Source: Podarcis liolepis
Taxonomy: Eukaryota
Length of the DNA stretch: 64,000 nucleotides
Strand: one strand, 5' to 3'
Assembly: GCA_965112155.1 (NCBI GenBank)
Contig: OZ218106.1
Both the position numbers and the translations under genes were made by a program. Every line of letters begins with the position of its first letter. The first letter of the stretch is position 1. Under the pieces are notes generated by a model. The model ran no database searches. It worked only from the letters and a program-made list of their open reading frames with translations, and had not been told where the DNA came from. Shown here piece by piece: positions 2,940 through 24,940 of this stretch.

Positions 2940-3366
2940 CAGGGGTGGAGGAAGGGGTGTGTGGTGGGGGTGGGCCACCCCGGGTGTCACCACAGGGGGG
3001 GTGACAAAATGCCAGGTGGCACTCACCGCGGGGCCTGCAGCATGCCCAAGCCACGCATCTCTCCTGCGAGTGACATGGTGGCTTGGGTGCCCGCAGGCTC
3101 CGCGCTGCCCCAAACGGTCTGCCCGCCAACTCCCCCTCAGCTGTAGGTTGGCTGAGTGGGAGGAGGAAGGCAGACTCCTCGGAGGCCCCACAGAGCATCC
3201 TGCCCCGGCTGGCCCCACCCCGTAGATGGTTGGCCCCGCCCCTGGGCGCAGGGCACGCACGCTCCCCCAGGCACCCAATTGGCTTGCTCCACTGCTGCTT
3301 CCAGGTATCCCTGTCCAACAACATCTGTGGGACAACCCCTGGCTACCCTTGGCTTACCCAGCACTA
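2940..3366. mobile_element. GC-rich non-autonomous repeat, possibly hAT-like (unclassified)
   Basis: An abrupt GC/CpG-rich block begins CAGGGG in an AT-rich background and abuts the BovB piece. No right TIR or TSD found. Confidence 0.35.
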
Positions 3367-3780
3367 AGTGAGAGCTGTACCATAAAGAAGGCTGATCGCC
3401 AAAGAATTGATGCTTTTGAATTCTGGTGTTGGAGGAGACTCTTGAGAATCCCATGGACTGCAAGAAGATCAAGCCTATCCATTCTTAAGGAAATCAGCCC
3501 TGACTGCTCACTGGAAGGACAGATCCTGAAGCTGAGGCTCCAATACTTTGGCCACCTCATGAGAAGAGAAGACTCCCTGGAAAAGACCCTGATGTTGGGA
3601 AAGATGGAGGGCACAAGGAGAAGGGGATGACAGAGGATGAGATGGTTGGACAGTGTTCTCGAAGCTATGAACATGAGTTTGACCAAACTGCAGGAGGCAG
3701 TGGAAGACAGGAGTGCCTGGCGTGCTCTGGTCCATGGGGTCACGAAGAGTCGGACACGACTAAATGACTAAACAACAACA
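3367..3780 (+). mobile_element. BovB (RTE-clade LINE) 5'-truncated 3' end
   Basis: Encodes ESCTIKKADRQRIDAFEFWCWRRLLRIPWTARRS...LEKTLMLGKMEG, then the BovB-type 3' end GGGGTCACGAAGAGTCGGACACGACTAA and a (CAA)n tail. Confidence 0.93.
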
Positions 3781-5748: not shown

Positions 5749-6253
5749 TATTTATTCCGATTTTCCTCATCTACAGATTATTTCTTATTTAACAAAATGC
5801 ATATACTGCTAGATTGTAATAAATGCCTCCAACGGGTTTACAAAAAGCACACACCTTAAAGTGATCAATAAAAGCATTTAAAAATAGGTACTGAAAAACA
5901 TTCAAAAGACGGCTAAGGCGATTAAAACACATGTCAATATTCTACATGTCTAAACAAAAATGTTTTACACAGGCACCGTGTTCAGCCACATACAGGACTG
6001 CTTTACTAAAAATGGCATGATGTACTCAGCTGCCTCCTGCTCACCTGGCTGCTGTTCTTCTTATTGTTTTTCCACTTTAAAATATCTCTACAGAATCGTT
6101 TTTGGGTGTGTGTGTTTTTGTAAGTAAAATGAGTTTCTTTAAAAATAAAATTTGTGACCACACTGATCTCAGGTGCTCAGAAGTCAGCCTCCTTGGCTTC
6201 CATGGCTTTGGTTAAAGCTCAAAGGAAGATGCAACGAGATAACAAAAACTTCC

Positions 6254-6690
6254 TGTCAGGGAACTGACATTGGAGCGAGAGGCGAAGGGGAGGCTCCCAG
6301 ATGATGCGGGAGAAGGACCCAGCAGCAGGGGGAGAAACAGCTCAGTAAAGGGGGAAGCCAATCAGCGCAACACCAGGGATAAAGGGGGGCAGACGGGGGA
6401 ATTGAAGAGAGGGCTCCAGGACTCTTCACTGGACATCAGTGAGGAGAGCCCAGGTCCTCCGCTGTCCACGCCCTCCCTGTGCAGAAGACTCCCGCGCAGT
6501 GAGAGGAGGAGGAGACTGGGTGTCAATCAACTTTTATGTTGGAAGAGGTTCAAGAAACGCCCACCTCACGGATTCTGCCAGCGACTGAGGCAGCCAGGAT
6601 GAGAAGGGGCTGTGCAGTCAGAAGGGTTTAACAAGGCAATTAGCCGAGAAAGGCACCAGTTTTACGCATGAGTAACTCATACCCACTACA
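6254..6690 (+). mobile_element. Solo-LTR-like element (Gypsy/ERV-type), 437 bp
   Basis: TGT...ACA termini and a 5-bp TSD CTTCC at 6249-6253 and 6691-6695. Purine-rich and GC-rich relative to its flanks. No clear AATAAA. Confidence 0.75.
6255..6602 (+). CDS. Putative LTR-encoded frame (115 aa, no ATG start, open from LTR base +2); low complexity with an Arg-rich C-terminal motif
   Basis: VRELTLEREAKG...DISEESPGPP...ERRRRLGVNQLLCWKRFKK. Same phase and motif as 13305-13934. Confidence 0.35.
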   Translation, partial: VRELTLEREAKGRLPDDAGEGPSSRGRNSSVKGEANQRNTRDKGGQTGELKRGLQDSSLDISEESPGPPLSTPSLCRRLPRSERRRRLGVNQLLCWKRFKKRPPHGFCQRLRQPG

Positions 6691-8450
6691 CTTCCTGTGG
6701 AGTTTTTTCAGATCAGGAAATTCAGGCAGCTAGGGAGGCTGCAGAGTGCTGGAGACATGTTCAGTTTGAAGGCGGAGGGAACACTCACCATCTGCAACCA
6801 GCTTGCAACAGTAAGGTAAGCTCAACCTCTCACTCACTGGAATGATAATGAAATTCTAAACTGCTCATAGGAAGAGGCAGACAAAATGGAAGGCTTCTTC
6901 ATGGGAGAAGAAAAGAAATGAAAACCTGAAGGATGCCACCCGATGGAGACTCTGAAAAGTAGGGCAAGAAGTGGCTGCTCTGCTCTGCTTCCCATGAACA
7001 GCCCTGATCTTTAGCCATAACTAAGCATAAGTCTTAATTGTGGCACCTCAGCTGATCTATAGGGTTACGGCATGTATATAGAGTCCAGAATTCAGGAAAT
7101 GTGAGGTTTTTTATTTTAAAAAACCAACAACCATACTTCATGCAAACCTGAGAAATGTGCCGACCACGAATGAGAGAATGAACTAGATTTTTAAAAAAGC
7201 CAGACAAAATGTACTGGTTTAGTCTTTTTCTTTCTTCTTCAAATTTACTAAGTTCTCATGCATAAGTTAAAAGAACTGTCGCAAAGAAGATTAATGTTAC
7301 GCACATCAATGCCAGCATCAAAATAGCAACTTTGGTCCAGTGTTAATAAAGACAGTGAATAATATTAGTCAGAGACTATGTTTAAATGAAATTCACTAAA
7401 TCATATTCATTAACTCCAAAAAAAGATAAAGCGAGCAAATGAAAATTCATACAAGTTCAAGTCTAAAGGCAAAAAATAATTCTTTACAAAGACGATTTGT
7501 CTGCTCTGCTATCATAATTTTCCCTCACGAAGAGGAGACATCTTATTCTAATTGCTTTTTCAGCCTGCTTGAAACAAAGAATTCTGTTGCATTTGAAAAC
7601 TAAATTTTGCTTATGCCAGCTGGTTTCAAAAGCATATTAAATTTTCAACATCAAAGGCTTTACTTAACAGTTTTTAAAATCCTTAAAATAATGTTTGTTA
7701 ACCATTTGCTTTGCAACAAGCAAAATAATTAATCTATCCAGCAAATTGCTTGTGTTCAGAGAGGCTGGCTTAATAAAAACAGCTTATTTCTTAGAAATAT
7801 CAAAGGTGCCTCTTATTTTCACCTGTTTTGTGTTTTTTGGAGGGAGGGATCCTATTACTACCAACAACAAAAAATTCAAGCAAATTTGGAGATTCCCAAG
7901 CAAAACACCCTATTCTCTGATTTTTGCTCATACTTGCTCACTGTTCATGACAAATAGTTCACCTGAAACATTTTTCTTGGTTACCCGTGAAAATCTTCTC
8001 AAAGTGGGTTGAAAAGAAACATGCAAAACTTCAGTTTCTGTTCTAATATCCCCCAGTACTGATCTGTATTTCTGGATATTGCAGGCAGGGAATAGAGACT
8101 GTTACCACGATAACAGAAATCTATATGGTTGCAAGAACCTGTGTCTAGTAGTGACAGTGGCAAATTTTAGAACTGAGGGAGTTCAGAACGATTCAATATA
8201 TTGGGCTAGGAAACACAGGATGCTGCAGATCCATGTAGCACAATCATAAAATATGGTGCTGAGCATGCTTAGAAGCATCAAGACCTTAAGGATTAGGCCT
8301 CAAAGGCCTATTATTGCCTTTGCCATCTCCCCTCTCTACAGGTAAATTTGCATGATAAAAGGCAGGGAGGTCTGGGGGTGCTGAGTTCATCTGGGTGTAT
8401 CTTTCATGCTTTTCTTAGAAAATAAAGTAAAAAGAGAGAGAAAGAGAGCT

Positions 8451-8799
8451 GGATGGCATCTAAACCACTGAGTCTCTTGGCTTGCCAATCAGAAGATCGG
8501 CAGTTCGAATCCCCGCAACGGAGTGAGCTCCCATTGCTCTGTCCCAGCTCCTGCTAACCTAGCAGTTCGAAAGCACGCCAGTGCAAGTAGATAAATAGGT
8601 ACCACTGTGGTGGGAAGGTAAACAGCATTTCCGTGCGCTCTGGCACTCATCACAGTCCTCCGTGTGCCAGTAGTGGTTTAGTCATGCTAGCCACATGACC
8701 CAGAAAACTGTCTATGGACAAACACCGGCTCCCTCGGCCTGAAAGCGAGATGAGCGCTACAACCCTTTTGACTGGACCTGACCAACCAGGGGTCCTTTA
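8451..8799 (+). mobile_element. Sauria SINE (long-form subfamily)
   Basis: B-box GTTCGAATCC and core AACCTAGCAGTTCGAAAGCAC...GCAAGTAGATAAATAGGTACC. 3' end GGGGTCCTTTA. Confidence 0.88.
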
Positions 8800-9007
8800 G
8801 CTGAAAAAAAAAAATTAAATACAAGAGAACCTCAGGATGTGGGTGGCAGCAAAAGAGAGCTCATCCATCACTCATTTCCAGTGGCATTCCTCATATGATT
8901 TACTGGTGCACCACACGGAGTATTGTATAGCTTTATCTGCTGCTACAGTAATCCCAAGAGTCCTTTCATCCATGATGTTTCTTCTACAGAGACTTTTTCC
9001 TGGGAAA

Positions 9008-9625
9008 GCAGGGCTGTAGCTCCATGGTAGAGCACCTTCTTTGCATACAGAAGGTCACAGATTCAATTCCTGGTAACTCTGGGAGGTCCCCACGTCTGCA
9101 ACCCTGGAGAGCCATTACCAGCCAGTGCAGACAATACTGTGCTAAATGGACCAATAGTTTGATGATGGATGTTCAAATATGTCAATTTCAGTTTCACTCA
9201 ATTTCTCGTTTTTCCAGTCTTCAGCTCGGTCCTCCACCTTTTCACATCAGTTTGTGATATATATATTTTTAAGCCCTCGTGAAAATTCATTGGCATTTTG
9301 GAGTTAATTTCTCCTTATATATACACATTTTTGCATGCAATGGTGCCTAATTTTGGCAAAGAGATTTCCTGTAATATAATAAAATTTGTACATTATTTTG
9401 AGTAATATGCACATTTATATGCACACTTTACTCTTCTATGTGCCTTTTCGTACACATTATTTGGCTGGAGATTGGCGTTGCAAAATTCAAATAACGATGG
9501 CTGTGTTTCAGTTCCCATATTGTTTGGGAAAGTGCAAATTATGTAAGTTCATCTTTAAATTTAAACCAAATCAAATCCCTCCATCTCTGTGTCCGACTCA
9601 GTAGAAGACCTCTCCCGTGTTCCTA
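9008..9625 (+). mobile_element. tRNA-derived SINE (Squam2-like), split by an insertion at ~9164-9590
   Basis: Head GTAGCTCCATGGTAGAGCA...GATTCAATTCC; the body is homologous to the reverse copies at 62660-62827 and 31183-31600; the tail resumes at ~9596. Confidence 0.65.
9164..9590. mobile_element. AT-rich non-autonomous DNA-transposon-like repeat
   Basis: Interrupts the SINE. A related sequence lies in the opposite orientation at ~54075-54260 (GCAAAATTC, GGCTGTGTTTC, AAGTGCAA blocks). Confidence 0.5.
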
Positions 9626-11577
9626 AACTTTACATTAATGCATAGCTTTTAGTCAACACTGCCAATATGTCTGATTTGCCGCATATCTGGAAGCTTCAGC
9701 AAGCACCAACTGTGGCTTCCAAATGTGTGAATTCATTGCAGAGTAAATGCTGGCACAAATGTTTGTTTGTTTTTCCCCCGTACGTCAATGCATGTCCCTT
9801 ATAGGGGAAATGAAATAACCCACAGGACTGGGCTGTTACTGTTTGGCATCCATGGAAAATATTTCTTCCTTGCACAAAATGTCACACAGAATAAATCAGG
9901 AACGAACAAAACCAGTTTCAGTTGTCCTTACCGAGATGTTAGTATTCACATTGTCCTCCCATAATTGGATTTTGCTTAACCAATCCTATTAACACACAGG
10001 TTAAAAACCTAACAAAGCAGAAGAGTTTAAAAGCAAGTCCTCAAAATCTCCTAATGACGGTTACTTAGGCATCATTTAATCCATACCATTTTGGGGAGGA
10101 GTTTGACTCATCAGCTCAACTAATCTTTGCTTCTCATGATGCTCTATCTCATAGCTCAATAAAATTAATGCATTGCATAAAAACTGCAGGAATAACTTCA
10201 TGTGTGAACTGACCTTGATCTCCAGTCATCTTTGAAGTTTTCCTTGAAAGGGATATTGGACTGGACAAAGCTGAGGTCCTGCCTATCATCAGCTTTCTAT
10301 CCTTCCGGGTTTTCCCTGACATTTTACAGATTAGGCAAAATTCACCCCATGCCAATTTTGCACCCTAATACCAGGACATCTCAGGAATTTTCCTGACATA
10401 TGGCAAGCCCCAGTGGCTCAGCTGAAAGGCCAACAACTTTCCTCTTCTTGAATTCTTTCCATTCCAAGTGTTTGCTACCAGAACTTCGTAACTAAATAAG
10501 TTTGTTTTATCCTTATTCCTTCCAATGCCTTTTCCTTTCGTGACATGTCTTTTAGGTTGTATACCTGAAACAGAGACTGTCTTATTGCTGATATTTTAAA
10601 GATACTTCGGGAGTCTTTGAGGGGATAAAGAGCAGTGTAAAAATGCTTTAAATAAATAAATGACTATTTTTCTCTACACTTGTCAGTGATGTGGAGACGG
10701 AAGATTTTGTAGGCTACCCACAATTTGTCTTCCGCACCAGTTTCCATAGTTGGTAATTTTATGACATCTGAAAGACTCTCACATTTCTGAGTACCTTCTT
10801 TGATAATCATTAATTAAATAGGGAACCATTTTTCTGCTTTTACGTGTTCTCCCTATTAGGAGTATTAAGCATAAGAACAACTATACCTGTCAAACTCTAA
10901 TTAAGTCTGAAGTAATTTTGTAAATAGCAGAATTCTCTGAAATCCATTTCCATGAGTGCAACTGCCCTTTTTATGTTCTCTGGGGGAAAGTCATTATGTA
11001 TTTGATGGAATAACATAGACTGCATGCCCATTTTTTCTTACTAATTTTATTTCCATCAAAAGAAATTTAGAAATTAAAGATGAATGTGTAGGCAGAGAGC
11101 TTTGAAACTTGCCAGAAGTTTTTTGAACTACTGATTACAATGATCGGAAGAATTGTGTGTGCATGCATAGTGTGGGCCAGACAATACTGGACAACTTTTT
11201 AATGTTTGGAGTCCTGTTCCTTTAGAAGGAATACTTCAGTGGTGCAAACTGTCACGTTGCACTCATTTACAGATTTTTTTGAGGGGGACGATGCCCTTTC
11301 CGAAATTGTCTCTTCCGCACATAGGTACAGAAACTCCAATATTTTAAAAAATGACTCAACCCCAGTTTGCAATGTTTTCTCTTTGGATATTTGTCCTGTA
11401 TTCCATCAAATCATGGAATTGTTGGGAGTTGGGAGGGATACCAAGGGATACCAATGCAAAAATCACAACAGGGCTAATGAACACATGATGCCGTATGCTG
11501 GAATAAAAGACGAGGTTATGATGTATTTTGACGAATTATCATGCACTGCTGTCAGGCTAAATGGCAGGTTATGAGTA

Positions 11578-11820
11578 CAGTGGTACCTCGGGTTACAGAC
11601 ACTTCAGGTTACAGACGCTTCAGGTTACAGACTCCGCTAACCCAGAAATAGTACCCCGGGTTAAGAACTTTGCTTCAGGATGAGAACAGAAATTGTGCTC
11701 CGGCGGCGCGGCGGCAGCAGGAGGCCCCCATTGGCTAAAGTGGTACCTCAGGTTAAGAACAGTTTCAGGTTAAGAACGGACCTCTGGAATGAATTAAGTT
11801 ATTAACCAGAGGTACCACTG
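11578..11820 (+). mobile_element. Tigger-like MITE family A
   Basis: TA|CAGTGGTACCTC...GAGGTACCACTG|TA. Confidence 0.92.
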
Positions 11821-11873
11821 TATAAGGAATGAAAAAACAACTCTCCTTAGAAGAACAGATGTCCCTGAAACTC

Positions 11874-12525
11874 GTTGTTGTTGTTGTTGTTGTTGTTTAT
11901 TCAATTTATATACTACCCTATAGGGGGTCTCAGGGCAGTTCACAAAATAAAATCAAGATATAAAACTACAAAATACATAATAAAAACAACAACACAATAG
12001 CCCCCCCCAAAAAAAAAAACCCCACACATTTTAAAAGGGCATAGGATGTAAATCAGATCAGCCAAAGGCCTGGTCAAAAGGGAACATTTTTGCCTGGTGC
12101 CTAAATGTGTATAATGAAGGTGCCAGGCGAACTTCTCTGGGGAGAGCATTCCACAGGCGGGGAGCCACTGCAGAGAAGGCCCATTCTCGGGTTGCCACCC
12201 TCTGGACCTCTCGAGGAGGAGACGCATGAAGGAGGGCCTCAGAAGATGATCTCAGGGTCCGGGTAGGTTCATATGGAAAGAGGCGGTCCTTGAGGTATTG
12301 CGGTCCTGAGTCATTTAAGGCTTTATAGATCAATACCAGCATTTTGAATTGGGCCTGGAAACTAATTGGTAGCCAGTGCAGTCGGACCAGGATCGGTGTA
12401 ATATGCTCAAACTGTCTTGCTCCGGTTAGCAACCTGGCTGCTGAATTCTGCACCAGCTGAAGTTTCCGAACCATCTTCAGAGGCAGCCCTACATATAATG
12501 CATTGCAGTAATCTAACCTTGAGGT
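11874..12525 (-). mobile_element. L2 LINE 3' fragment
   Basis: TSRLDYCNALYVGLPLK...EHITPILVRLHWLPI...AFSAVAPRLWNALP, then a 3' UTR and an (AAC)n tail. Confidence 0.9.
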
Positions 12526-12584
12526 TAGATTCATAGCATAAGAAGATAACAACACATCTAAATGTTGAATCTTTATAATCCCCA

Positions 12585-12760
12585 CAGGCATCTGGCTGCT
12601 GTGATAACAGGATGCTGGACTAGATGGGCCATTGGCCTGATCCAGGAGCATAGCTGTCAACTTTTCCCTTTTCTTGTGAGGAATCCTATTCGGAATAAGG
12701 GAATTTCCCTTAAAAGGGGAGAAACATTGACAGCTATGTCCAGGAGGCTCTTCGTATGTC
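12585..12760 (+). mobile_element. CR1 3' UTR fragment hosting a hAT MITE
   Basis: AACAGGATGCTGGACTAGATGGGCCATTGGCCTGATCCAG matches the reverse complement of the CR1 end at ~34130-34175. Confidence 0.7.
12649..12738. mobile_element. hAT-type MITE (90 bp), CATAGCTGTCAA TIR family
   Basis: Perfect 12-bp TIR CATAGCTGTCAA/TTGACAGCTATG and an 8-bp TSD TCCAGGAG at 12641-12648 and 12739-12746. Confidence 0.9.
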
Positions 12761-13303
12761 CCCTTTTCTTTAAATTTTGCTCAGGAAAGGCCGGTAGGAT
12801 CTGAGACATGCTGGAATAATAAATACCTCTTTTATCCACGTTATTACTTTCTGCTTCTACTCCCATTCCGTTAGAACTCCCCCCCCTACTTTCTTGAAAG
12901 CAGTAGTCAAAGCAAAGGAAATCATTTCCATAAAATGTTTATGTGATTGGGATGTGTTTTTCTTCATTATTTGCAGAGGGATCTACACAGATAACCGCAC
13001 TGAAAATAGCTCAGGAACCTGATGCAGAATTAACAGCTACGTATCCTGATTCTTGGGAGTCTGATTACTCCCGATATGCTCTGTCTGCATATTTTTAAAT
13101 AAATATATCGCAAGGACGCTGTAACTCTGTAGTTCGCTCTCATCCAAAGGAAACTAGACCATCAAGTTCTAACCCTGCTCTGGGAAGTGAGAAGTACTTG
13201 AGACTATCAATTTTCTAAAAAATAAAACCAACTGGCTTTTAAAATTCATAGATATCGATGGATTTTGCCATTTCCATTAAAATTGTCATTTCTCAAACAT
13301 ATC

Positions 13304-14060
13304 TGTCAGGGGTTCAGGAGCAGAGGCGAGGACAAGGGAGGAAACAGAGAGCGAGGGGGAGGAGTCCGAAGAAAAGATGAGTGATGACGACGACCCGAGA
13401 TCTCCGAGTCTTTCCAGTGAATCAGAGGATTCACAGAAAGGAGCGCCAGTGGCCAGAGCAAGGGGGGAGCCCAGGGGGACACCCCAGGAAGAAGGGGCCA
13501 GAGGGGGTTCAGAGGGCAGCAGTTGGAAAGCGGGGCCAGCGTCCCCAACAGAGCGCAGTGGAGAGGAAGGGCGTCAGGTATCGAGCTCTGGCAGCTCGCA
13601 GCAGGGGGGAGGGCATGAGTCAGGAGTGGCCACACCTCCATCGGGGAGCGAAGAAACGGTCAAGCGGAAAGTGGAAGGTTGGGCGCGCGCGCCAAGTTCA
13701 AATGCACAGGAAGGCGGCGCAGTAAGCAGCCCAGAAAGGGAGCCAGGTCCTAAAGCCCGACGCAAGGAGACAGGAGGGTCCGGGGGGTCAGTGTCAGAAG
13801 AGTCCAGGAAGGAAGAGACCACGGGGGGCAGAGGGACCCAGAGAAGAACGGTCAGGCGGAAAAGGTGGAGTAAGGCGAGGTTATTAAGTTGGTGTACAAG
13901 GGGCGGAGACTCAGACGGAGCTTCGCCGGTCTAGCTTATAAGACGTAGAGCTGCACGCGGCAGCTTGGAAATGGAAACTGTAACTCAAAAAAGACTTTTA
14001 TAAAGTGAACGCTGGCTAGCGTGATCCTCTGTGAGCTAGGATCTGGGAGCAGCTCTGACA
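13304..14060 (+). mobile_element. Solo LTR (Gypsy/ERV-type), 757 bp
   Basis: TGTCAG...CTGACA inverted termini and a 5-bp TSD ATATC at 13299-13303 and 14061-14065. A TATA-like TTATAAGA lies just after the ORF stop, followed by a possible decayed poly(A) signal CAAAAAAGAC. CpG-rich. Confidence 0.88.
13305..13934 (+). CDS. Putative LTR-encoded frame (209 aa open from LTR base +2; first ATG at 13377 gives 185 aa); acidic/Ser/Gly-rich with an Arg-rich C-terminal motif
   Basis: VRGSGAEARTREETESEGEESEEKMSDDDD...SVSEESRKEE...TVRRKRWSKARLLSWCTR. No stop codon across almost all of the presumed U3. Confidence 0.4.
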   Translation, partial: VRGSGAEARTREETESEGEESEEKMSDDDDPRSPSLSSESEDSQKGAPVARARGEPRGTPQEEGARGGSEGSSWKAGPASPTERSGEEGRQVSSSGSSQQGGGHESGVATPPSGSEETVKRKVEGWARAPSSNAQEGGAVSSPEREPGPKARRKETGGSGGSVSEESRKEETTGGRGTQRRTVRRKRWSKARLLSWCTRGGDSDGASPV

Positions 14061-14857
14061 ATATCATTTCTGGGGAAACATGGTCTTCAGTTTAACATGC
14101 ATTCCTTGGCCTATTTAACTGTTGTCAATATTGATGTTGCCCTTCAGAGCTGGAGAAATTTAAATCATAGAATCATGAAGATGAATCGGCCAAATTCGAG
14201 AATTGAGGCATGAAGGATTCAGTGTGCTGTAGACGTAGATGGTGGGGAACCTATGAGCCATTGAGCTAACTAGACCCACCAGGTTTCCCCGTTTGGTCTA
14301 CGATACCATTATGGTCAAGCCACACCCACCTGCTCTACACCTGACATCATATTTAACATCAGGGTGGGGCAGGTAGAAACCCAGCTAAGCCAAAAGGACA
14401 CCAGGGATTAGCTGATCTGCAAAACTCCTGCAAAGCACTTTGCAAAATAGTCCTTTGTAAAGGGCTCTGCAAGACCATGATATGATGTCAGGTGATGGAC
14501 AGGTGGTCAGCTCCACCCGCCTGTCAATCCTAGCCCACGAGGGCTGGGGGGATATAATGAGAGAGATGATTTGCAGAATGAAAGAAAGGACACCCGCACA
14601 ACCCTTCAGCTGCTTTTAAAGAGAGGTGAGTGGAATAACAACAAAGTCCCATATCCCACCCATGGAAGTTTTACCAAAGTCTCCTCTCCCCTTTGATAAT
14701 TTCCAAATGCATTTTCCTTTCTCATTTTAATTGGTGGCTAAAAGTTGAGGAAATCTTTGGCACAGCAGCAGTCATCATGAATTTTTTAGAGCTTGATGGA
14801 AAAATTTCCCCCTCCTAAATCTGTGCTGGTCAGGTTCTTAGTCAAAGAACAGGAGCA

Positions 14858-15334
14858 TCTTCTTCAGTCTTTGGCGATCACTCGTAGCCGAGTAAGATTG
14901 TCTTCCATAAACATGGTTTTAACAGTGAGTTCGTAAGTGACTGTGGAGGCCAATTCTGGATCCACACGTCCTTCCACAGTGGGGACATTGGTTTCCAGGT
15001 GGGAGTTGATCACGGTGTGGATTTGCCAAGTGTGCCTTCATCATAGCACATTTCTCCCTTGCATCGTGAGTTCGAGTGTCTTCAAAGCCCATGACACCTT
15101 TGGTAAAGGCTGTTCTCCAACTGGAGTGCTCACAGGCCAGTGTTTCCCAGTTGTCAGTGTTTATACTACATTTTTTTATATTTGCCTTGAGAGAGTCTTT
15201 AAACATCTTTTGTTGACCACCATTATTACGCTTTTCATTTTTAAGTTCGGAATAGTGTAGTTGCTTTGGAAGACAATCATCAGGCATCCGAACAACATGA
15301 CCAGTCCAGTGAAGTAGATGTTGAAGAATCATTG
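14858..15334 (-). mobile_element. RTE-clade LINE 3' fragment (non-BovB) with a C-terminal C2H2 finger
   Basis: LHWTGHVVRMPDDCLPKQLHYSEL...CPHCGRTCGSRIGLHSHLRTH, then a short 3' UTR and a GAA-type tail. Confidence 0.88.
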
Positions 15335-17717
15335 TTTCATTTCCACAGATTAATCTCACTCTTAGGGCAACTGCAGGGCTAGAAGACCTCTCTGGAGGAA
15401 GCAGAGGATACAATGCACCTCCGAAACATAATTTGATTTTTTTTCTACCAGTATTTTAGAAGCAAACTAGACATGAAATGAATGTTCACTTTTGGTTTGG
15501 GGCTTTGGAATCTCTGGGAGACTGGGATGCGTAGTGTCTTTCTCTCCTGTCACACTTTGGACAAACAGATTTCCTGAAGCTGCTATTTGCATTCCAAGAG
15601 AAGTTGCCATTGGTACCTTTGAAATGAACACGGCAGCTTCAGAGAGGAGATTTTTTGAGAACCGTGGCAGAGCCATAAATATGTAACCTTTTCTCCCTCA
15701 AAGCCATATTCCTAAAGCTGCTCAGGCTGAAATACAATTGCTGTTTACATAACAAAAACACATACTGATTTTATTAACATCTCATCTGCTTTAGACCTCA
15801 TAATACCATTGGGCCGGTGGAAAAAAGAACTCAACAAAGGCTCCGGTTTAAATATAAACTCAGATCTAACCTCATTGCATAGCTTTGGGGAAAGCATTTT
15901 TCTTTTAGCATTGGTGCTTCATGTGTCAATTGGGAATAAGAGCCTAACCTTGAGGGCGATTCTAATATAGATTTTTGTAAGAATTGCTACCAACTGTACA
16001 CAATACATCTACCACAACAATGGCAGCAATTTATTTTTTATTTATTTCTGCTACCCAAAAAAGTAATAATAAGTAAATTGTGGTTATCTCCTGCTACTTA
16101 GCAACAATCTGGAGCACTACCGAACAAACAAACAAACAAACAAACAACTCCAATCATTTTATTGGGTCATCAACACTCAGTAATTTTTAATTAGCGGAAA
16201 AAGGTACCATGTGTGCCTTTTAACAAAAATGTTTAATGTGATGCTAGCGGGGAGAATCTACTTATTGTAAATTTATTGTTATGTTTACAGAGGTCGGCGC
16301 AGAACAAATGTTAGTGACTGTTGGCTTATGGCAGACAGTGGAAAAGGGAGAAGGATTAGATGAGGAGGAGAAACTTTTTCATCATTAAATTTAGCAAAGA
16401 CTGCTCACCCTTAAGAGCATACTACAGGGTTTTTACTTTTAATTAAGTTTTAACTGCTGTTTATGGAAATTCTCCTCTAAATCAGTATCAAACATGTCCT
16501 AAAGCCATTCATACATAACCACTAATTCATTCTGTGCTTGACAATCCGTCTGCCGGAGCTCTGTCAGCAAAATAGCTGATTATACTAGATTTGGTTGAGA
16601 CTCATTTGCAATTTCTGATTAAACTGCTTTTATTGTACTGGATTGTAATGCTAATCAGAATTAAGCTAGGTGCTGAAACATGACCAACATTTATCAGAGA
16701 ATGAGTTTGTTTCTTTTTCTTTCTCTCTCTTTTTTTAAAGAAGATCAGACCAAAAGTCTAAATGGAACTAACCTGTGGTCTGTTTATTAAGATTAGCACT
16801 AGAGCAAAACAAATTTGCAGTTCAAGGAATTTCCTAATTCTGAGATTTCATTTTGCGAGACTCTGGGGTGGGGTGGGGGGGGGGGAATGCAACCAGAGGC
16901 TTCAAAGGCATGAGTTGATGATTAAATTAAAATGCTGCAAGGCTCTAAGGTAAACATTTGTACATCCTGTACTATTTATGCTTAAACAATAAGGACTTTG
17001 TTCTGCATATTCCAGACTAAATCAGGATCAGGATCTAATATAACCAAAACCCTCAGTTCCAAGACAAGCTTCAATGAGATTAATACCAGCCGTTAATTAC
17101 TCTAGGCTTCTAATTGCAATATGCCATAGAATGCCAGCCTGAATATTCTGTGCTGTCCTTCAGTTTACGATATGAAAGGTAATGGAAGATTGGTAAGCTT
17201 TGCTACTCTGAATGTAAAATAACCTTGAGATGCAGTTCAATCCAAAATCCAGTTATTCCATTGTTCGAAAAGCTACAACCCTATGCAACACTTCCTTTGG
17301 AGCAAGTGCCCCTGAACACAGCTAGACAAACTTTATTTTATTTTATTTTATTTTCTAAGAGATGCACTTCTGAAGGATAGAAGTGTATAGGATAGAAGTG
17401 TATAGGATAGAAGCGGTTCTGTACCTACTTAACTGAGCATAAGCTCCATTGAATTCAGTGGGATTCATTTCTGAACAGACTTTTAGAGAATGGCACAGAG
17501 TTATTAATCGATTTAGTACTAATCAAAATCCAACAATAAACTCAGAAGTACGTCTCGCTGAGTTCAGTGGCGTAAGAACGTAAGAAGAGCGTGCTGGATC
17601 AGGCCACTGGTTCCTGTTCTCTCAGTGGCCATATGGCACTTAAGTCCTTAGGGTTGCAGCCTTGCTTCCCGGTACATATTTTTAGGGACTGCTTAACTCA
17701 GTGCTTCTCAAGTAAGA

Positions 17718-23990: not shown

Positions 23991-24940
23991 TAATAATAAT
24001 AATAATAATAAATTTATTATTTATACCCCGCCCATCTGGCTGGGCCTCCCCAGCCACTCTGGGCGGCTTCCATAGAAACCAAAAATACACTAAAATATCA
24101 CACGTTAAAAACTTCCCTGAACAGGGCTGCCTTAAGATGTCTTCTGAATGTCAGGTAGTTGTTTATTGCTTTGATATCTCGTGGGAGGGCGTTCCACAGG
24201 GCGGGCGCCACTACCGAGAAGGCCCTCTGCCTGGTTCCCTGTAGCTTTGCTTCTCGCAATGAGGGAACCGCCAGAAGGCCCTCGGCGCTGGACCTCAACG
24301 TCCGGGCAGAACGATGGGTGTGGAGACGCTCCTTCAGGTATACTGGACCGAGGCTGTTTAGGGATTTAAAGGTCAGCACCAACACTTTGAATTGTGCTCG
24401 GAAACGTACTGGGAGCCAATGTAGGTCTTTCAAGACCGGTGTTATATGGTCTCGGCGGCCGCCCCCAGTCACCAGTCTAGCTGCCGCATTCTGGATTAGT
24501 TGTAGTTTCCAAGTCACCTTCAAAGGTAGCCCCACGTAGAGCGCATTGCAGTAGTCCAAGCGGGAGATAACCAGAGCATGCACCACTCTGGCGAGACAGT
24601 CCGCAGGCAGATAGGGTCTCAGCCTACGTACCAGATGGAGCTGGTAAACAGCTGCCCTGGACACAGATTTGACCTGTGCATCCATGGACAGCTGTGAGTC
24701 CAAAATGGCTCCCAGGCTGCGCACCTGGTCCTTCAGGGGCACAGTTACCCTATTCAGGACCAGGGAATCCTCCACATCTGCCCGCCTCCTGTCCCCCCAA
24801 AACAGTACTTCTGTCTTGTCAGGATTCAACCTCAATCTGTTAGCTGCCATCCATCCTCCAACCGCCTCCAGACACTCACACAGGACCTTCACCGCCTTCA
24901 CTGGTTCTGATTTAAAAGAGAGGTAGAGCTGGGTATCATC
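23991..24940 (-). mobile_element. Young L2 LINE 3' fragment, inserted in a hAT-like MITE
   Basis: Uninterrupted frame from DDTQLYLSF (24940) to ...AALFREVFNV* (24098), then a 3' UTR and an (ATT)n tail. Confidence 0.95.

Follow-up and report, generated by a model that had tools for sequence, protein, structure and literature searches.

Two solo LTRs with open U3 frames

The 64,000-nucleotide window analysed here, a stretch of Podarcis liolepis DNA (GenBank assembly GCA_965112155.1, contig OZ218106.1), contains two solo long terminal repeats (LTRs) of Gypsy chromovirus families, both on the plus strand and each with a long open frame in its U3 (unique 3′) region. Solo LTR 1 (element 1; 6254..6690, 437 bp), of the family referred to here as E1 type, runs from TGTCAG to ACTACA and is flanked by the duplication CTTCC at 6249-6253 and 6691-6695. 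Its U3 frame occupies 6255..6602 (115 codons plus a stop in the window copy), and the segment from a basic patch to the residues LLCW (6504..6542, codons 84-96) is the best-conserved part of the encoded tail. Solo LTR 2 (element 2; 13304..14060, 757 bp), of the E2-type family, runs from TGTCAG to CTGACA between copies of the duplication ATATC at 13299-13303 and 14061-14065. Its frame of 209 codons plus a stop lies at 13305..13934, with the basic patch and LLSW at 13854..13892 (codons 184-196). A predicted TATA box, TATTAA (13882..13887), overlaps the LL codons of LTR 2 some 30 bases upstream of where transcription is predicted to start, a position derived from the self-primer; this predicted 11-nucleotide self-primer marks the start of the R (repeat) region (13913..13923) and is, in full-length copies, complementary to an 11-base stretch downstream of the 5′ LTR (offset 2).

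The initial annotation of this DNA had reported TG...CA ends and 5-bp duplications for both LTRs, together with frames of 115 and 209 codons opening at LTR base +2, and all of these are present as given. The peptides and codons likewise agree with its description, with 18 and 16 residues between the sequence SEES and the basic patch and five between the patch and LL. The window copy of LTR 1 reaches 115 codons through a private frameshift just downstream of the motif; its family has a frame of 110 codons. Shuffling (5000 times) produced an open frame of the same length in any plus-strand frame in 5% (element 1) and 0.2% (element 2) of cases, and one starting at base +2 in 0.6% and 0.02%. On its own, the open frame of element 1 is borderline with respect to chance; the reality of the frame is settled because family copies keep its length.

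A first look at the 1.57 Gb genome gave 3893 candidates for element 1 and 3067 for element 2, the best 40 of the latter being 97-100% identical, and the element 2 family is both young and abundant. For each element the best 40 candidates were scored and 30 were fetched, so that these sets are biased to close copies; among the 30 closest loci, the frame was 110 codons in 27 (element 1) and 209 codons in 26 (element 2). At 36.1-37.2 Mb of contig C20, several element 2 5′ LTRs (L014-L017, L025-L027) have near-identical flanks on both sides, reflecting segmental or tandem amplification of a single insertion. Among the matches listed, junctions between the polypurine tract and the element 2 LTR also crowd at the two ends of contig C1, within 5 Mb of its start and in the final 1 Mb.

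Pol read-through into the 3′ LTR

Full-length copies of element 2 (L062-L064, about 6.5 kb) contain a zinc-knuckle gag together with a pol that comprises protease, reverse transcriptase (RT), RNase H, integrase and an SH3 domain of the Tf2 type; the pol domains were identified with Pfam on L062. No internal region of the element 1 family was found in the 10 kb beside L065-L069, five loci without a clean duplication; internal regions of its family were recovered through polypurine tract patterns instead. At one locus (L169), an LTR 91% identical to element 1 is joined in the same phase to a chromodomain and a linker bearing the motif FxGF.

Joints between polypurine tract and LTR were picked by DNA pattern alone, which gave 2086 matches for the E2 type (control 18) and 943 for the E1 type (control 1); the first 30 loci per type contained 28 and 30 real joints, respectively. 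Chromodomain and LTR motif lie in a single stop-free frame in 21 of the 28 E2-type and 25 of the 30 E1-type joints, confirming the connection of pol to LTR base +2 that the initial annotation had raised: in copies with internal sequence, pol passes the polypurine tract and enters the 3′ LTR at that base. The resulting order is protease, RT, RNase H, integrase, SH3, degenerate chromodomain, one or more FxGF motifs, acidic spacer, polypurine tract and LTR codons, with 190-370 residues after the chromodomain, 100-220 of them encoded by U3. LTR frame lengths vary in whole codons, from 197 to 221 in the E2 type and from 99 to 127 in the E1 type. The tail ends in basic-x5-[LIV]L[CSN]W, and LLxW was present in 27/28 E2-type and 29/30 E1-type joints, sets that had not been filtered for the motif. 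Thus, the suggestion that U3 encodes a long disordered C-terminal extension of integrase holds for the continuous pol frame of both families, and there is very little doubt that both window frames are U3-encoded ends of pol kept by purifying selection.

The tail is predicted to be disordered. An AlphaFold2 model of an E1-type tail is confident for the chromodomain and low elsewhere, with pLDDT (predicted local distance difference test) mostly below 50 after residue 68; Pfam found no match in either LTR peptide, nor did a phmmer search of an E1-type LTR tail against the PDB. In the mechanism proposed below the tail would stay on mature integrase, although the protease may instead cut it off.

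U3 regions can also encode separate accessory proteins, as in Nef of human immunodeficiency virus (HIV) and Sag of mouse mammary tumour virus, and the initial annotation had named an accessory protein as an option. The E2 type has in-frame ATGs at codon 25 and two codons upstream of the LTR, as well as a splice-donor-like GTAAG after the 5′ LTR, features that a product of its own ATG or of a spliced RNA could use. However, the frame is continuous with pol without a stop, E1-type joints read V-D-V-R without an ATG and the GTAAG belongs to the self-priming site, which makes a separate protein very improbable.

Although no significant DNA similarity was found between the two LTRs (best E 0.14), E1-type and E2-type pol proteins are 57-58% identical, and each is 47-48% identical to that of a third, sister family. 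The relatedness of pol implies that the tails are homologous and that the motif is shared by descent rather than by convergence. Automatic gene models have already crossed the same boundary: UniRef models of Podarcis muralis named 'Gypsy retrotransposon integrase-like protein 1' (P0001-P0003) run into the E1-type tail, and the best PDB match of P0002 is Ty3 Gag-Pol. These models and P0133 include chromodomain, FxGF linker and LTR-encoded tail and are 85-99% identical to loci of the present genome over the last 330 residues; their names are automatic, and the records returned mark neither the LTR-encoded tail nor the motifs.

A separate arrangement was seen at L102 (8734-9702), a truncated E1-type copy in which the LTR start is fused to the chromodomain, leaving chromodomain, FxGF linker and tail in a single open frame.

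Selection on the U3 frame

Substitutions were counted pairwise in frame-blind DNA alignments of subfamily representatives, 11 of the E1 type (55 pairs) and six of the E2 type (15 pairs), the pairs within each set not being independent. The set lacks two intended representatives, L091 and L103, and excludes L084 and the L074 cluster as frameshifted; because the representatives came from a motif-filtered set, their LLxW invariance is partly built in. Over the 22 codons ending at W, the ratio of nonsynonymous to synonymous substitution rates (dN/dS) in frame +2 was 0.13 for the E1 type and 0.23 for the E2 type, compared with 2.51 and 1.22 (E1 type) and 0.72 and 1.28 (E2 type) in the other frames of the same segment. 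The upstream U3 frame gave 0.66 (E1 type) and 0.32 (E2 type), and the 90 bases after the stop 0.76-0.99. The protein-level selection across families that had been postulated is supported by +2-frame values of 0.13 and 0.23 against 0.72-2.51 in other frames.

A count by alignment column, which avoids pairs, showed the expected codon periodicity, with an excess of third-position changes in both families: changes at codon positions 1, 2 and 3 numbered 26, 13 and 49 in the E1 type (P 1e-5) and 23, 15 and 29 in the E2 type (P 0.035), and were flat after the stop. Gaps told a mixed story. In the E2 type, 26/28 gaps in the coding part were multiples of three versus 0/10 after the stop, the pattern foreseen for a coding frame; in the E1 type the pattern was weaker, with only 46/90 coding gaps in threes versus 5/64 after the stop.

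At the residue level, L, L, C, W and K are invariant with synonymous codons in all 11 E1-type representatives, and the first L of LL is L, I or V in the element 2 lineage. SEES, which the initial annotation had included in the shared motif, is present in only 2/11 E1-type and 5/6 E2-type representatives and was rejected as a motif part; the conserved motif is basic-x5-[LIV]L[CSN]W.

These data also bear on whether the frames are simply chance openings on a T-poor strand. T makes up 13-15% of the strand, and element 1 alone was matched at the 5% rate given above; against this stand the pol phase, the frame-specific synonymous excess and the in-frame length variants, which leave chance practically excluded.

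Overlap with promoter and priming sequences

The bases after the 5′ LTR complement a site within the LTR itself, at LTR positions 610-620 in L062 and L064 (11 nt exact, with a mismatch in L061), at 280-290 in L071 and L096 (10-11 nt) and at 377-386 in the sister family (10 nt). Self-complementary priming sites of this kind are described for Tf1/sushi elements in the available text of PMC4600332 and PMC6317226, and the E1, E2 and sister families are predicted to self-prime. One E1-type locus (L162:1513-2210) has a 3′ LTR that stops right after the predicted self-primer and is followed by GC and a complete inverted LTR; with its joint exactly at the duplex of primer and primer site, it looks like a by-product of self-primed reverse transcription.

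Judged from the self-primer, the predicted transcription start lies, in both lineages, 32-33 bases downstream of the codon for the first L. Transcription would begin about 20 bases before the stop of the frame, so that only the 3′ LTR copy of U3 would be translated; neither of the two solo LTRs would express the tail from a promoter of its own. U3 thus appears to serve as promoter and coding sequence at once, and in the E2 type conservation of LL may partly be that of promoter DNA. An explanation of LLxW purely as TATA DNA was rejected for the E1 type, in which the LL codons vary synonymously (CTT TTA, CTC CTT, CTC TTA, CTT CTA, CTT CTT and CTA CTC), including the TATA-free CTC CTT; the constraint on LLxW in this family is, judged from these codons, protein-level. 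Likenesses of LLxW to PIP-box, SAM and LxxLL patterns were considered and dropped.

FxGF motifs after a decayed chromodomain

The state of the chromodomain differs among the three families. Pfam Chromo scored 59.3 bits in the sister family and 34.6 bits in the E1 type (cut-off 25.1) and had no match in the E2 type, in which a chromodomain-like stretch aligns by eye with its cage residues replaced. At the positions that we take, from canonical chromodomains, to form the aromatic cage, the sister family keeps the residues, the E1 type has lost part of them and the E2 type none remains in.

In both lineages the chromodomain is directly followed by F-x4-F-x8-[FLM]xGF. The E2 type has one FxGF motif and the E1 type two, the second reading W-x3-F-x9-FxGF, and FxGF is in frame in 24/28 E2-type and 27/30 E1-type joints. 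In an alignment of 16 first motifs from chosen copies of both lineages, F11, F16, T19, G27 and F28 are invariant (16/16) with synonymous codons. The ratio of nonsynonymous to synonymous differences (pN/pS) is 0.09-0.35 over the FxGF motifs versus 0.58-0.70 just downstream. F-x4-F or W-x3-F is invariant ahead of the linker, which has eight residues in motif 1 and nine in motif 2 and is acidic in the E1 type and rich in S/T in the E2 type. The E2-type motif reads S-T-F-[HRQ]-G-F, and many E1-type motifs have D or G at position −2. As a separate observation, three E2-type linkers (L115, L117 and L124) have a second aromatic cluster, SYWWDD.PEE.WR..W, after FxGF; it does not occur in the E1 type.

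This arrangement resembles a known class of host motif. According to the available text of PMC9987994, a motif that interacts with TFIIS N-terminal domains (TNDs) consists of a helix anchor, an acidic or S/T linker of 8-16 residues and FxGF, the last being special for LEDGF/HRP2. The consensus for binding to the integrase-binding domain (IBD) of these proteins is S/E-x-F-x-G-F, and the DPF3a peptide holds STFHGFD (PMC7337902, in the part available), which several E2-type copies match letter for letter; the accessible portions of 10.1101/624023 and PMC11740969 agree on FxGF. A possible partner is encoded in the lizard itself: the genome has two LEDGF-domain loci, with a LEDGF exon that matches several records, those of Podarcis and Lacerta included, at 100% identity.

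The sister family, with its intact chromodomain, lacks FxGF, and its LTR-encoded tail ends in the HMGN-like sequence RRSARLKA. This third family group (L100:2761-6447 and L207-L211) is very young, with many identical copies and frames of 1270, 1558 and 1564 codons; the motif at the end of its tail is RRSARLK. Among the best 150 representatives, 82 have a chromodomain recognisable by pattern, and six of these an FxGF-like word after it: four in a homologous context (P0125, P0126, P0133 and P0143, with P0133 and P0143 being Podarcis muralis records) and two by chance in chimeric tails. P0126 (48% identical) retains both FLGF and LLCWKRR and represents a third lineage. Relatives in Vipera and Rhineura with canonical chromodomains have acidic-then-basic tails of 87-104 residues without FxGF or LLxW. 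Many gene models cut or fuse tails, and the range of FxGF and LLxW given here is a lower bound. A search of the Atlas returned only chromodomain clusters, below 0.8.

A possible chromatin tether

We propose that the pol tail running into U3 is under selection and likely tethers the integration complex to host chromatin, the best explanation as a whole, to which we assign a probability of about 0.65. The tail probably acts in nuclear entry or chromatin tethering. In this mechanism, the FxGF motifs would imitate the TND-interacting motifs of host proteins and thereby engage the IBD of LEDGF/HRP2; that the binding is specific for LEDGF/HRP2 is a prediction to which we give even odds. Such a tether would replace the lost methyl-lysine cage and bias insertion to transcribed chromatin. 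The LTR-encoded basic-LLxW end would give nuclear import together with nucleosome or DNA contact, in the slot that is filled by RRSARLKA in the sister family. Somewhat more tentatively, the lineage may have traded its chromodomain for FxGF mimicry, a lentivirus-like targeting of independent origin and different binding mode, with U3 as an exchangeable cassette for a second chromatin motif.

Several observations weigh against this proposal. The AlphaFold2 monomer model of the E1 type, of low confidence with 10 sequences, has no helix at F-x4-F or W-x3-F, the predicted anchors, and in 5 of the 16 first motifs the first F of FxGF is L or M. When a tail is shuffled with its composition kept, one FxGF turns up in 2-5% of cases, and a phmmer search of the two FxGF linkers against the PDB found no IBD-bound peptide, with one chance match at E 0.29. 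On the LTR side, the E2-type LL codons spell TATTAA at about −30, upstream U3 of the E1 type is weakly constrained in both its dN/dS and its gaps, and the pairwise dN/dS values lack independence. The FxGF motif is weak on its own and draws its weight from conservation and context.

A more modest reading, which we consider unlikely, is that the tail is translated but is merely a nuclear localisation signal on a tolerated spacer, with LLxW partly fixed by the promoter and FxGF a structural appendage of the chromodomain. The TATTAA overlap in the E2 type, together with the 32-33 base spacing shared by the E1 type, is consistent with such a reading, as are the position of the first FxGF motif directly after the chromodomain and the long acidic-then-basic tails, lacking LLxW and FxGF, of the sister family and of Vipera and Rhineura proteins. 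However, E1-type LL codons lose TATA-like bases synonymously while L, L, C and W stay, and FxGF has a second, distant copy in the E1 type, lies far from the chromodomain in P0126 and is missing where the chromodomain is intact.

Alternatively, the basic-LLxW tail could work inside the particle rather than at integration, for instance by binding RNA or by aiding self-priming or strand transfer. Its Arg-rich end (25-35% K+R in the last 40 residues) would suit such a role, and self-priming elements require RNA structure at the 5′ end (PMC4600332, in its available text). This role would leave unexplained both the FxGF motifs and the presence of an HMGN-like motif at the corresponding place in the sister family, and it appears improbable compared with chromatin tethering.

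Relation to known elements

In domain order, C-terminal chromodomain and self-priming site, the families appear to fit the Tf1/sushi chromoviruses. They share with these a zinc-knuckle gag, a pol of protease, RT, RNase H, integrase, SH3 and chromodomain, 5-bp duplications, TG...CA ends and a primer site complementing their own R (available text of PMC6317226, PMC4600332 and PMC4131045). Unlike Tf1/sushi and vertebrate Amn-san elements, they have partly (E1) or wholly (E2) lost the cage and carry an extension of 190-370 residues; the accessible descriptions of sushi LTRs and Amn-san elements (PMC3601003, PMC4131045) make no mention of such tails, and FxGF and basic-LLxW do not appear in the available text of PMC6317226, PMC4600332 and PMC4131045.

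Extension of pol into the 3′ LTR has a precedent in plant CRM group A elements (PMC3059260, available part). Plant CRM group A uses tRNA-Met priming and has a CR motif (same source, available part), whereas the lizard families have a primer site complementing their own LTR, a decayed chromodomain that is kept and other motifs. The extension of pol into the LTR presumably arose independently of that in CRM. Short overlaps of pol and LTR also occur in fish elements, and read-through as such is probably not new.

The FxGF linkers share a hydrophobic anchor, an acidic or S/T linker of 8-9 residues, FxGF and disorder with IBD-binding motifs of DPF3a, IWS1, JPO2, MLL1, PogZ, ASK and JIL-1 (PMC9987994, PMC7337902 and 10.1101/624023, as available). 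In these texts the carriers are host proteins, PogZ being a domesticated transposase, and none is the integrase of an LTR retrotransposon; in the lizard, the binding is a prediction. The available text of PMC9987994 names lentiviral integrases as the viral users, and the word 'transpos' is absent from it. With the lentiviral system (PMC9987994, available text) the lizard elements would share the host tether and insertion into transcribed gene bodies. What sets the lizard case apart is that it would be linear-motif mimicry in a retrotransposon. Lentiviral integrase binds LEDGF via the cleft of a catalytic core dimer, not via FxGF. Our literature search listed no paper that describes LTR-encoded tails or FxGF motifs for chromoviruses of vertebrates; it did not extend to Repbase, Dfam or most subscription papers, where the families may be described.

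Insertion-site choice by vertebrate Gypsy elements is a largely untested question, and the lizard sister families, with many young copies, differ in exactly the relevant parts, combining either an intact chromodomain with RRSARLKA or a decayed chromodomain with FxGF and LLxW. If FxGF does bind LEDGF/HRP2, these would be retrotransposons using the host tether of HIV via a linear motif. Frames that are under selection, ready for use as exons and equipped with putative nuclear and chromatin motifs are present in thousands of solo LTRs, a point that bears on models of LTR evolution and on gene annotation.

Surroundings of the LTRs

The window is a repeat-rich stretch. A Pfam search of 85 of the 128 window frames of at least 78 codons gave no match above the curated cut-off, and no host gene was placed around the LTRs. 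The frames at 12058-12780, 24098-24940, 14919-15455 and 3226-3630 resemble 3′ ends of the reverse transcriptase gene of long interspersed nuclear elements, and lie amid many repeats resembling short interspersed nuclear elements or miniature inverted-repeat transposable elements.

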